Positions 3,001 through 9,000 of a stretch of DNA of 10,428 nt are shown here, one piece after another. Each line of letters begins with the position of its first letter. The stretch's first letter is position 1. The DNA comes from a virus (taxonomy: Duplodnaviria > Heunggongvirae > Uroviricota > Caudoviricetes): positions 1 to 10,428 of the IMG/VR virus record IMGVR_UViG_2778260992_000009, one strand, 5' to 3'. A program made the position numbers.

Positions 3001-6000
3001 GCCTGAACGTTAAAAATAGTGTTACTGGCAGAAATGGTATTTGGTGTCTGCTCTGTCGTGATGATATTGGTATTTTGCATGGTCAGGTTCTCCATTAAGC
3101 CAGATGCAGTGCTTCAAGACGACGAAGATCAAAGTCGTTTAATTCGTCGGTATAACTTTCGGTAATCGGTGCTGGCCAGTTGTTTGTCTCTAGGGCTTCG
3201 TTTATCTGGCGTAGCGTCCGGCGATATTCCTGTCGACCAAGTTCCAGGAGTTCCTGCGAGGCTTCCACGACAGCCACCCAGTGATAGCCAGCATCTTTGT
3301 TGACGAAGATCCAGAAAAATTTGTCCAGGTTTGCCACATCGCAATACATTGCGGCGCTGAGGTGATAATCACGCTCAATAATTTCACGGTGCAGGCGATC
3401 TTTAAGTCGTTCCTGCCGCACATAACCGAGGCTGACTGACTTCACGTCAGCGCAAATGCTTTCGTATGGCAGCCGGATTTCGATATCAGGACGGACCCTG
3501 ATTTCCAGCCCGGTTTCTTCATCAAACCCGAAATAGCTGATTTCAGATTTGCGATCCGGGTGGTTGAGTAGCCTTGCTGCATCAGTATTGTTTTGCATTG
3601 CAGCGTGAATATTTTTTGCCTGTTCATACATATCCGGACTGATAAACGTTTTCCCGGCGTTTTCTTCTTGCTGGCGTTTTTGCCAGTCCTCCAGTGTCAC
3701 CAGTTCCGGGCGAATTTTCCGTGCGATTTCGGTTAATTGCTCTTTTGTGCCACTGATGTTGTAAGGCAAAGATTTAGCACGTTCTTTTTTTGCCAGTTCT
3801 GGGTCTACAGTTTCAATTTGATCCAGAAGCTGCTCCCGTGCTCCACTGGTTTTCAACAGAGGAGGGAGGCTTGCGTTGTATTCTTTAATACAGGCTTTCA
3901 TTGCTGATGCTGTATGTTTTTCCCCCTCAGGAATACGCCGAAATTCCACCGGAAGCGAACCGTAAAGGATGCCTGTTTCTTCGGCCCCAGCACTTACAGA
4001 CAGTGGCTGTATAAGAGTGCTGTTGTAGCTTTCGATCCACTCTTTCATCTGCTCTGGTGTCATCAGTGCTGGCAGACTGGCATTGTGTTTTTTAATGATG
4101 GCGATCAGTTCGTTAGAAGTAGTAACCACATATTCAGGAACCGGTACCGGAATGGCATATTCATCAGCGAATTTATCCGTTTCCAGAACATAGCTGTGAA
4201 TGATCCGCCCACGCAGCAGTGCATCACTTTCCTCGTTCGGAATAGTTCCGGCAATGTGCCGCCCGTGGTAATACATCAGGCTGATACGGGCATCCTTCAG
4301 CATCGTGCTGCTTATTCCGTTGGCGGAGTGATAAACCTCGTTCGGGAGGTTTTCATAGCGGCCTGGCTCGAAATATGACGGCCACATGATTTCAGTTGCT
4401 ACAGGAGCTGACGCTTCACCAGTTTCATCACTGCAATCGCGATGCGGATCGCTGCCAGCATTCTCATTGTGCGGATGTTCAGCGCCTTCCATTTCCTCCG
4501 GATCATTTTCCTTAGCTTCAACCTGATTCTCTTCATCGAATGTTTCCTGGTATGTTGCGTCGCCCATCACCGCACCACAGTCAGGGCAGTTGCCGCCGCC
4601 GGTCTGACCGCAGGCGGCGCAGACTTTTTCCGGTTCCTGTTGCGCTTCTGGTTCATTTTGTCGCGCATTTTGGCCGTTTTGTTCCGATTTTCGGTCGTTC
4701 TGTTCCGTTTTTGGCTGATGCTGGTACACAGAATCGCGGGTCTGGATCCCCTTAACCCATTTCGGATCATTTGGGTCGCTAATCCCTTCAACAAATTCTC
4801 CGCGATAGGCAGCCAGTAATTTGTCTGCATCGACAGGATTTTTGGGCGGAATGTTTTTCCGGGCTTCATGGAGTTCTGCCCGCAGTTTCTGATATTTCGC
4901 ATCAACAGAATTTACCTGTGACTGAGCATCCAGCGGCTGCGTGTCCTGATGATGTTCAGTTGCATCCGGTTCCACTGTTTCAGCCGTTGCCTGTTCATCT
5001 GCCATTGCGCAAGATGGTTGCGGTTTTTCTTCATCATCCTGTTTTTCTTCTTCTGTTACACGCTGCGGCATCGGGGCAGAGGAGCGACTGCAGGCAATAT
5101 CCACGATTTCCGGATCAGGGTTGGCATGATCGGTTTCAGTCAGTACTTTGTTCAGATATTCAGTGACGTGCGCGGGGATGACCTCGATCCCAATTGGTGC
5201 TTCTTTCACGGACGCAACCACGATGGCGCGGGAATAATCCAGCCCGCCAGGCATGGTGATGAATTTGTCGCGGAAAACAGAAAAGGGCGGTTTATTTTCA
5301 GCGATAATTTCCTCAATGCGTTTAGCGTGTGCAGGATGAAGGTTATAGATGTCCACGTCCATTGAACGGGCCAGTACGCCAGTGGCTACATCGCGCGCCA
5401 GTGACGTCAGATCGTGGACGAAACCTTCGCCGCGATCGGTGAGGTTCCCGCCGCCAGCATTAGCACCGGAAGCCGTGCGAGTGATGCGTGAAACACGATT
5501 CCCTTTTCGCCATTCTTTTGTCAGAAGACCGCGATCAATGTGTTCGGTATCCAGCCAGGCTGAAATGAAATTCTTAAATTCATAGGGCTGATGTTTTTTC
5601 GTGATAGAGAAAACTGCCTTAATTGCATCAGTCAGGCGGAGCAGGGCGGCATTATCCAGAGTTGTCGGTTCTGCCATGCCGCGTATGGCCAACAGCAGAT
5701 TCTGGACATAGCTGTTTTCCTGATCCATCTCAAGAGCAGTGATGTGTTCGCGTTGTTCACGGGTGGCATGATGCAGGTATTTCCGATCCCCGGCCGCATA
5801 CGTAAAAATGTGCAGAAGACGCTGTGTGAACCGCAAAGTGGCTACAGAGACTTCGCAATCCTGGCAATCCCCGTGGGCGTCTGCCTGCGCGTTTTCTTCC
5901 TGGCCCCCCGCCAGTTCTTTGGTTTCCTGAGCATTATCATGGTGGTGAACGTCGTCTGGCGCTGCTCCCGGTTTTAGTTCCCAGGTCATGGAGTCTTTGC

Positions 6001-9000
6001 TGAGTTGATAGCGTTCACTCCAGGTAAAATCGATCTCACCTTCAGGGGGAAGGTCATTAACGACAGGAAAATTCGTGGCAACAGCTTTAAAATAGCTGCT
6101 CAGTTTTTTACCTGACTTAACGATCAGGTAGTCCAGAGTGGCACAGGTCGATTCAAAATCGTCGCTTGCCCACAAGACGACGTCAGGTTCACCGGATGAT
6201 TTTTTCGCTTTCCGTAACAGGAAGAGTGGTTTTGTGCTCATTGTTTTTTAACCTCAACTCAGATTAAAATTCGTTTTGTTCAGTGAATGATCTTGCCGGA
6301 TACACACTGTTCATAGCCTGCGCCATACGCAGGCTATTTCTTTCAGATTTCACCGTTTAATTTCATTGCAATCAGAGTTGCCAGAAATCCGGCTTTTTTT
6401 TCTGCGGGCAGATTCTTTCCGATGTGAACCAGGCACATTTTTGTGACACCTTCATCAAGTGTTTTTACGTTGCCTGATGGACCGTCGATATCAACCACAG
6501 TGAATGGGGTTTCTTTATTTTCTGTTTTAATCACGTAGCCAATACGCTTTCCTTCCAGATTAACCTCGTGAACAATGTCATCGGTAGTTACAACAGTGGC
6601 TTCATAATTGGTAATCATGTTTTTCTCCTTAATTAAGGTTGAGTGAATCCCTGCCATTGCTGGCATAAATTCAGTTTCGAATAGTCAGTTAATTAAAGTT
6701 CGTGTGCCATCTGGTCTTTTTCGGCACATATTTCACTACAATATTTTTTCATTTCCGTCGTTGGGATAACTCCACGCATGAAATGAAGTGGTTTTGTAAT
6801 GCTTTTGCTTTTTTCAACTTCTTTATTGCAAAGGTGGTAAGCACATTTTATTTTCTTAGTCATCACCATGACTCCGCCTTTACAGGTAAACCATCACGAC
6901 CGAGGAAGACTTTAATCATGCAGTCAGTAATGCATGTTTTTGTGGTCAGGTTACGAATATAAAGTTTTCGCTTTTTAATATTGTTTGCCGAGGCAATATA
7001 TGTCCGGCCTTCATGAAGAACATAATCGCCAGGAGTCACACACTGACGTGGTATTTCATCAGTTCCGAAGTGATGTGCAATCATAATTATCTCCATTTTT
7101 ACAAATGAACTTTGTTGATGCGGTGCCTGGTGCCTCCAGGTGACGTTAACCAGTTAACAATTAACGCCGGATAATCCACCCATAACACTGATGCTTTTAA
7201 CTGTTCCGCGTGCGCTTAGCCGCATTCACCGCATCACAAAATTCACTTTAAAAAGGGGCGGACATCAGCCGAACTTCAAGAAAAAACTGATGCCGCCAAG
7301 ACTACACACAGCAATGTCGTTATTTACAACCGGAGGCGCACTCCCACCATTTAAATTTCACAGACAAGACCGGACTCTTTATGGATACCGGAAATGCGCC
7401 TTCGTGTTGTATGCCTGTCTTTTTACCACTTTAGGCTCGGTGGTATACTGGAGTTCTCACACAACCAGTAAGGAATTGCTTATGCCTATTCAATCTCAAC
7501 ACAAAAATATTGATTATCTTTCCGCCAGATTAGAGGCTACCACGCTTGTTCTTGAAGAACTTGTTAAACTTCTTACGCCAGAGCAGCGTGAAAAACTGAA
7601 TCTGGCAATTGCCGGGCGTTGTCCGGGCGTGAAAAATGCGTCTCTCAGGAATAGAAATTCTCTCGCATATCAATTATTACAGTTCATCAATGATGGCGTC
7701 CGCAGCAGCGATTAATTTTTCTAATGCCTCTTCGACATGATAATTGTATGGTTGTAGTGACCTGACATCTGTAATTGCATTAGCCAGGTTTCGTGCCATT
7801 ACGGCTGGTGCGATTTTTTTTTTGCTACTGATACCCGGCTGGCGAGTTCCAGTGCGAGACGTGCCTGCCTTGGAGTTAGCTCTCTCTCTCCTTTGCCATT
7901 GTTGATGCTTGTACAGACAATTCATACGCCAGGCAAAATACAGCATTATTCGTTTCTGGCGGGTCAATACTCTGAGTAAATGTCATCTTATCTCTCCCCT
8001 TAACGCCGGGTGGCGGAACTAAAACCTACAGCGCCGTGCTGTTCTTGATATAAATATTAGTAACACGGATATTTTAAGTCAACAGTGTGACGTATTATGT
8101 TTTTGATTTAGTAACTAAGTAAATGTTTTTTCAAGGGATAAATATTAGTTATACAGCTGATTTGCAGAAGTTATGGCACAAAAAAACCGACTAAGACGTC
8201 GGTTTTTTTGTTGTGGATGGGGTGGTGAGCGGTGGCTACTGGTTGCGTTTCTTTAGTGCCAGCATGTTCTCGAAGGCTTCCTCGTAGAGCTTGTTTAGTC
8301 CACGTAGCTGGTTAAGGAGTTTGGCTTTTTCTGACGCAGGTAGAATCTCGAAGAGGTTAAGTAACTCTGCCTGTTCTTCATTGACCAGCCTCCATCCTTT
8401 GCCTGAAAAGCTATCATCATAAGTATCTGATGATCTTACATAATTCATTAAGTCTTTAAGGTCTTCTCGAATGTCCTCTGGTTTTACCTTTAACAGAGCC
8501 GCAAATTTTAGCGCAGCGTCGGTATTTACCGGTATCTTGCCGTTCAGATACTGACTAACGGTGCCTTGAGATTCGAATCCCAACAACTCAGCCGCCAGCT
8601 CTTGAGTCAGCTTCAGCTCTTTTTTTCTTGCATTCCATGCGGCTTTTAAATTCTTGCTCGCTTCTGGAGTTGCAATCACGTCACGTGTTTTTTTCATACA
8701 TAGAGTTTATTTGTTTTACCAATATTATCAAAGATAGTCTGACTATTGATCTTTAAAATTAGTGGGGCTAATATTTGCTCGAGGCATAACGTAGAAGGTT
8801 GGCTATGAACTTAAGAGACTATTTAAAAGAGAAAAATATCACCCAGCTACAGTTTGGGAAGCTAACGGGTTTATCTCAGGTGCATGTAAGTCGAGTGCTG
8901 GGGGGCTATGAAAGATTCAGCCCTGAAAAAGCATTACGTGTTGCTGAAGTAACGAATTTCGAGGTTACACCTCATGAACTCCGGCCTGATATCTACCCGA

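Follow-up and report, generated by a model that had tools for sequence, protein, structure and literature searches.

RecET is the workhorse of recombineering. The sole available crystal structure of its nuclease, RecE, has disordered rim loops, and to our knowledge no structure of RecE with DNA exists. One loop of Escherichia coli K-12 RecE, residues 665–698, juts out at the rim of the channel according to a published description (PMC11611040). The recET orthologues of the Gifsy prophages, when activated, suppress recombination defects (PMC3121763), and phage recombination genes are recognised to be modular (PMC12315714). The present analysis concerns the recE gene in a stretch of 10,428 nucleotides from a Caudoviricetes virus (IMG/VR record IMGVR_UViG_2778260992_000009, positions 1 to 10,428; hereafter the window), which corresponds to the left arm of a prophage of the Rac type, inserted beside ttcA. 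Taken whole, the evidence tips slightly towards a mosaic RecE with a four-unit rim insert of the helix-extended loop-helix (HeH) kind that would serve in DNA capture.

RecE and the nuclease–recT cassette

Compared with the K-12 Rac prophage by blastn, the window is 95% identical in DNA over 1–1982, 91% over 4400–5536 and 94% over 5945–7410, and 1983–4399 has no DNA similarity to it whatever. The breakpoints of this cassette fall at 1982/1983 and 4399/4400, the right-hand one in an acidic linker just ahead of the start of the nuclease fold. The gene and the parts concerned are as follows.

3095–6241, minus strand: recE, 1048 amino acids from an ATG start (open reading frame list and translation); the identical RefSeq gene is recE, exodeoxyribonuclease VIII
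1983–4399, minus strand: exchanged cassette, the recT variant and the RecE nuclease module (residues ~614–1048), from blastn against K-12 Rac
4139–4387, minus strand: N-terminal part of the nuclease core, residues 619–701, which includes His682 (equivalent to K-12 His652; hhalign to K-12 RecE)
3098–3661, minus strand: C-terminal part of the nuclease core, residues 861–1048, with E900, D919, D932 and K934 and Pfam DUF3799 at 860–1024

In a global family-profile alignment (hhalign), the nuclease domain matches K-12 RecE 590–866 with a probability of 100% and E 7.5e-51 at 25% identity, whereas the module is 51–52% identical over 98% of its length to the RecE of Gifsy-1, Gifsy-2, SPN3UB, HK225, mEp237 and several Klebsiella phages. 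The Gifsy-1 prophage representative (P0034) has the same four hidden Markov model unit matches as the window module. Since the cassette has no DNA match in K-12 and stands at 25% identity to K-12 against 51–52% to Gifsy, the pattern argues for module exchange and not for a K-12 RecE with an addition. The window RecE is thus very probably a mosaic, a Gifsy-1 type nuclease module on a Rac N-terminal region, and by sequence the nuclease domain and the downstream recT have been replaced together, in one cassette, by a Gifsy-1/HK225-type pair.

The initial annotation had implicitly proposed a module added to a K-12-type catalytic domain, and this part of it fell: the domain belongs to another lineage within the one family, exchanged together with recT. 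The corresponding explanation, a K-12 RecE orthologue that acquired a repeat insertion in place, would account for the K-12-like N-terminal 610 residues and for extra residues that lie mostly in one block, but the entire nuclease domain and recT lack K-12 Rac DNA similarity, and the flanks of the insert are ~25% identical to K-12 and 52% to Gifsy-1 RecE with the same insert. This extremely improbable model is refuted by the blastn result, the Gifsy-1 comparison and the profile alignment together.

Within the nuclease core, H682, E900, D919, D932 and K934 align to K-12 H652, E729, D748, D759 and K761, and these catalytic H, E, D, D and K columns are invariant in a 48-sequence family alignment. 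The PD...DVK motif reported in the initial annotation is indeed kept at residues 918–935 (PDIEIR at 918–923, ADVKS at 931–935), and DUF3799 (PF12684) scores 49.4 bits on the whole protein and 53 bits on the domain alone, with a cut-off of 26. An AlphaFold2 model of the module, built with the 48-sequence alignment, has a mean predicted local distance difference test score (pLDDT) of 94.5; its best PDB match by sequence and by fold is the RecE nuclease domain 3h4r (Foldseek E 9.5e-10; template modelling score 0.61 normalised to the target), and the lambda exonuclease structures 3sm4 and 1avq are weak fold matches. A RecT-family gene lies directly downstream of recE, and the recE product is, from sequence and model, a functional-looking RecE-family 5'–3' double-stranded DNA exonuclease.

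The recT product belongs to Pfam RecT (E 7.4e-37) and has no BLASTP similarity to K-12 RecT.

1992–3095, minus strand: recT variant, 367 amino acids by the longest open reading frame; RefSeq start at 3080, 362 amino acids

The recE stop codon TAA (3095–3097) overlaps the ATG that opens the longest recT frame (TAATG), and the RefSeq start is an ATG 15 nucleotides further downstream, at 3080. Because GGAGAA precedes the latter, the true recT start is probably 3080, giving a product of 362 amino acids.

The N-terminal region had been described as Rac RecE-like over two-thirds of the protein, which stands for ~610 residues at ~90% DNA identity (4400–5536 and 5945–6241) except for one divergent patch.

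4403–6241, minus strand: Rac-type N-terminal region, residues 1–613, with Exonuc_VIII at 2–182, a divergent patch at ~99–235 and an acidic linker (Pfam, blastn, BLASTP)
4577–4621, minus strand: CxxC-x7-CxxC motif, residues 541–555, a regular expression match aligned to K-12 CNACGQTGGDNCPDC

Exonuc_VIII (PF06630) is matched over residues 2–182 with E 2.4e-67 and 227 bits against a cut-off of 25. By BLASTP the protein is near-identical to K-12 RecE up to residue ~610, save for 99–235, and only weakly similar thereafter; the C-x2-C-x7-C-x2-C motif noted in the initial annotation is common to both proteins. Window 5537–5944, which encodes residues ~99–235, has no K-12 Rac match by blastn and aligns poorly by BLASTP, and this stretch is a second mosaic patch inside the N-terminal region.

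The helical insert and its units

The window RecE, with 1048 amino acids, exceeds K-12 RecE (NC_000913 b1350, 866 amino acids) by 182, as originally stated. Of the extra residues, the N-terminal region accounts for about 29 and the nuclease module for ~153; ~140 of the latter form one block, so that they are not spread evenly. In the global profile alignment to K-12 RecE 590–866, residues 704–827 are unmatched and two small gaps bring the total to ~140 amino acids; the K-12 stretch 'RTNAGKEEEK...CASTGKTVIT' is aligned by hhalign with a window stretch ending in 'ENAGKTFIS'. By this alignment the block replaces most of K-12 loop 665–698. A pairwise placement by BLASTP and phmmer against K-12 671–734 was misplaced and is superseded by the profile alignment.

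3662–4138, minus strand: helical insert module, residues 702–860, at K-12 loop 665–698 (hhalign gap, AlphaFold2)
4016–4126, minus strand: predicted unit U1, residues 706–742; helix 709–722, NASLP loop, helix 729–742; N720 invariant
3941–4060, minus strand: predicted unit U1b, residues 728–767; helix 729–742, NSTLIQP loop, helix 753–761; N740 invariant
3797–3919, minus strand: predicted unit U2, residues 775–815; helix 778–791, loop, helix 802–812; conserved K797, G800 and R802
3692–3787, minus strand: predicted unit U3, residues 819–850; helix 814–821, loop, helix 833–843; conserved G831, K833 and R841

AlphaFold2 predicts a folded insert, whether it is modelled in context or by itself (pLDDT 91.8; predicted template modelling score, pTM, 0.71 alone), as eight helices arranged in four units of helix, 6–11-residue loop and helix, U1 and U1b having one helix (729–742) in common. 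The initial annotation had listed three repeats of about 27 amino acids. These peptides are where it placed them (R1, residues 717–743, 4013–4093; R2, 786–812, 3806–3886; R3, 822–848, 3698–3778) and their similarity is non-random; what the model yields is a folded module of four helix-extended loop-helix units of ~40 amino acids instead of three shorter repeats. By Smith–Waterman alignment, R1 and R2 score 59 against 20.4 ± 4.2 in shuffles, a value reached by none of 2000, and R2 and R3 score 45, reached by one of 2000; R1 and R3 are not significantly similar (323 of 2000 shuffles). Family profiles gave the same picture in hhalign, with E 3.5e-11 for U1–U2, 1.6e-11 for U1b–U2 over 40 ungapped columns and 6.9e-8 for U2–U3, and no significance for U1–U3.

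Across the 30 long-form homologues, some as distant as ~20% identity, the insert keeps a length of ~159 amino acids with few exceptions. Its asparagines N720, N740 and N789 are invariant and set in a recurring 'Y-N-A-x-L-P' helix cap, and in the homologue alignment G800, R802, G831 and P845 are nearly invariant. A search of 3600–4200 for direct repeats in the DNA found only chance matches of 13–14 nucleotides, so the duplication of units is ancient. On these grounds, it is likely that the rim loop holds a folded insert of four HeH-like units.

The geometry of the units, helix, extended loop and helix in ~35–40 residues each, is that of the SAP/HeH motif. A Pfam scan of 24 homologous inserts found SAP in 15 (best E 1.3e-7), SAP_new25 in six, Ish1 in four and Thymopoietin in two, all of them families of the HeH group. 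The SAP matches are mostly in unit 3, at insert positions 125–142, on the G-x-K...L...R half of the model. G800/R802 in U2 and G831/K833 in U3 are conserved in more than 90% of sequences. In the window units themselves, Ish1 was the sole relative in the Pfam scan (E 0.15–0.2), and a Foldseek search with the insert model gave no PDB match (best E 1.7). From the structure and the family-level profiles, we infer that the units are HeH/SAP-like, without counting them as members of the Pfam SAP domain.

One other motif came up among PDB sequences. The U2 profile (residues 798–812, window 3806–3850) matches N-WASP 'GRDALLDQIRQ' at E 6.3e-7, which would point to a WH2 actin-binding motif; this identity was rejected as a short-motif coincidence, given a match of 11–15 residues, no LKKV and the context of a phage nuclease.

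In the literature searched, no description was found of a SAP-like array inside a RecE nuclease domain, and RecE and 'SAP domain' never occurred together.

The possible role of the insert across the family

That the insert is a 'DNA- or partner-binding module', as suggested initially, remains the right class of hypothesis. Duplex DNA capture at the ring entrance is quite possibly its role, and we put this forward tentatively. Seated at the wide entrance of the channel, the insert would furnish a tetramer with 16 HeH-like units round the entering duplex; the G-x-K/R that opens the second helix, conserved in U2 and U3, would contact the DNA backbone, and this contact may help to capture a DNA end or to hold the duplex, for instance by raised end affinity or processivity, with the nuclease core degrading the 5' strand and the 3' tail receiving RecT.

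In an exhaustive search, the nuclease module proved to have 3603 relatives. For the 105 cluster representatives that align on both flanks, loop length at the insert site, roughly estimated, is 0–35 amino acids in 33, 36–80 in 28, 81–130 in four, 131–175 in 36 and more than 175 in four, and thus appears to vary across the family in roughly unit-sized classes. One-unit forms are an in-register loss of residues 726–820, and some forms have extra units. Two stand-alone long-form nucleases (P0219 and P0263, with a ~159-amino-acid insert) are followed by AAA_24 proteins rather than RecT, and another long-form nuclease (P0196) by a protein without a Pfam family. AAA_24 is the family to which the Sak4-type annealing proteins belong. 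The same insert therefore stands beside RecT-type and AAA_24 partners and does not depend on the type of annealing protein, which favours DNA handling over partner docking.

In two metagenomic phage contigs (L007:4001-6372 and L009:4001-6324), stand-alone nucleases of ~430–444 amino acids with the same insert are encoded immediately upstream of an AAA_24 gene, and a divergently transcribed gene for a DEAD/SNF2-type helicase flanks them opposite; the make-up of this recombination module differs from that of RecET.

The prophages of O145:H28 RM12581 and O55:H7 DEC5A bear on the link between RecE and RecT (L010:2510-6699 and L011:2509-6719, compared with window 1992–6241). Their RecE nuclease module is 98–100% identical to that of the window, RecE residues 1–250 are only 21–46% identical and the RecT core 22–63%, and the final ~65 RecT residues are 96–100% identical. 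Because this tail was kept with the nuclease module while the RecT core was swapped, some specific RecE–RecT contact would seem to travel with the module, which suggests that the tail is co-inherited with it as an element matched to the nuclease core. The pattern could also be taken to mean that the insert is a protein-docking platform, like LEM-type HeH domains, which would bring RecT, some other phage protein or a host factor (for example single-stranded DNA-binding protein) to the nuclease ring; the long C-terminal extension of the cassette's RecT, the net acidic charge of the insert across the family and a weak Thymopoietin/LEM-like match in one homologue (E 2.4e-4) would agree with this. 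A one-unit RecE (P0144), however, is followed by a RecT of the same subtype, 54% identical to that of the window with the C-terminal tail included, a pairing that fits a tail binding the nuclease core and not the insert. This pairing and the AAA_24 neighbours weaken the case for the insert as a RecT docking site, the length of the insert is unchanged beside AAA_24 genes and beside the protein without a Pfam family, and the G-x-K/R signature is conserved in U2 and U3. Docking in general is thus held to be rather unlikely.

The variation in unit number bears on a further explanation, under which the role of the insert would be chiefly structural: as a cap or collar, it would alter ring assembly, stoichiometry or channel gating without a specific ligand. 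The predicted eight-helix module is fairly compact (pTM 0.71 alone) and does not resemble beads on a string, its length of 159 amino acids is strikingly conserved, and as a whole it lacks a strong match to any ligand-binding domain, all of which such a collar would explain. Yet the family has members with 0, 1, 3–4 or more units, so the ring cannot depend on the insert, and SAP-like signatures are conserved in U2 and U3; a purely structural role is accordingly judged improbable.

Several points weigh against the capture of DNA by a SAP-like array. The rim position of the insert is transferred from K-12 RecE by alignment, and no experiment on the insert was found in the literature. Neither the window insert nor any of its single units has a Pfam SAP, HeH or LEM match, for SAP even at E ≤ 10, and the SAP matches of the homologues cover model positions 19–35 of 37, with only two above the gathering score. 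The net charge of the insert is −4 in the window and −2 to −14 across the family, unlike that of a typical SAP domain, and U1 and U1b conserve acidic, not basic, residues, the conserved basic residues being confined to U2 and U3.

DNA capture at the entrance also leads to a broader proposal, which is more speculative and is offered with less confidence. The four-unit HeH/SAP-like array could be a hitherto unrecognised accessory with which toroidal exonucleases of recombination are equipped: each tetramer would bear at its entrance a crown of 16 motifs in contact with the duplex, which would set end capture or processivity and which phages would tune by gain and loss of units, whatever the annealing protein. 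It would then also be a prokaryotic or phage case of SAP-type motifs set within a nuclease and, if true, would be relevant to the origin of the eukaryotic SAP domains in repair nucleases. A widespread RecE lineage with a folded array of variable length at the rim loop would offer a way to test what the rim does in end capture and processivity, and the array might be of use in the design of improved nucleases for recombineering. The mosaic pattern, for its part, marks the pieces that seem to travel together, with a breakpoint at the pre-nuclease linker and the RecT C-terminal tail accompanying the nuclease module.

Genomic setting and comparison with known systems

The window matches E. coli O8:H28 BMH-17-0027 at 100% identity, and its genes run in the order int, xis, DUF1187/ralR (where the RalA small RNA also lies), recT, recE, a racC-like gene, ydaE and kilR. 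At least 80% of recE is present in 88 of 5426 complete E. coli genomes, and the exchanged cassette (1983–4399) is matched in 196 of the 5426, with a coverage of at least 80% in 32. The recE of Escherichia phage Rac-SA53 (KU052037), annotated as exodeoxyribonuclease VIII, has a nuclease module 100% identical to that of the window (tblastn). The window recE is already deposited and named in RefSeq/GenBank, its Gifsy relatives are genetically characterised, and it is no new system; the novelty lies in architecture only and is of modest interest for the RecET mechanism and for recombineering.

In Actinobacillus phage vB_Apl-pPE4 (PP818812.1, 1860–3170), a nuclease module is 97% identical to that of the E. 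coli Rac-type recE. This is unexpected for a Pasteurellaceae host and might reflect breadth of host range, recent transfer or a problem with the record.

Elsewhere in the window, the RalA antitoxin small RNA (Rfam RF02694, 218.5 bits) lies at 1557–1735 on the plus strand and, as in K-12 Rac, is antisense to the ralR/DUF1187 genes. Over 7411–10428, the immunity and early-right region, blastn shows next to no DNA similarity to K-12 Rac, with a single 39-bp match at 7984–8022; the identical RefSeq genome is annotated here with two helix-turn-helix proteins, a toxin of the YdaT family and the beginning of a DUF1376 gene, and replication protein P lies just past the end of the window.

Among described systems, lambda exonuclease resembles RecE in its PD-(D/E)XK core, in being a ring-shaped processive 5'–3' exonuclease and in having an annealing-protein partner. 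It differs in that it is a trimer, has no long rim loops or HeH insert, belongs to another Pfam family and is partnered by Red-beta.

SAP/HeH/LEM motifs (PF02037; for instance the SAP of Ydc2, the yeast Holliday-junction resolvase, PDB 1KCF, and that of Ku70) are like the units in their ~35–40-amino-acid geometry, in the G-x-K/R at the start of helix 2 seen in U2 and U3 and in their attachment to a DNA-processing enzyme. The window insert is set apart by its four diverged tandem units, which lie within a nuclease loop and not as a terminal appendage, by its net acidic charge, by the lack of the basic signature in U1 and U1b and by a sequence of its own that stays below the Pfam SAP thresholds.

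The RecE of K-12 Rac (b1350, PDB 3H4R) comes from the same type of prophage, at the same ttcA site and with the same order kilR-ydaE-racC-like-recE-recT-ralR-xis-int. It has largely the same N-terminal ~610 residues, with the CxxC-x7-CxxC motif and the acidic linker, and the same PD-(D/E)XK fold with the same catalytic His, Glu, Asp, Asp and Lys. In contrast, it has the disordered loop 665–698 where the window has ~140 extra residues, its nuclease is only ~25% identical, its RecT is unrelated at the BLASTP level, and residues ~99–235 of RecE differ as well.

Rac-SA53 recE shows no difference from the window in this module. The RecE proteins of Gifsy-1, Gifsy-2, HK225, mEp237 and SPN3UB are of the same nuclease-module lineage, ~48% divergent, and phage FSL SP-016, with a nuclease of the Gifsy/HK225 type, likewise has a RecT gene beside it; the window RecE differs from the Gifsy/HK225 proteins in that its module is joined to a Rac-type N-terminal region.

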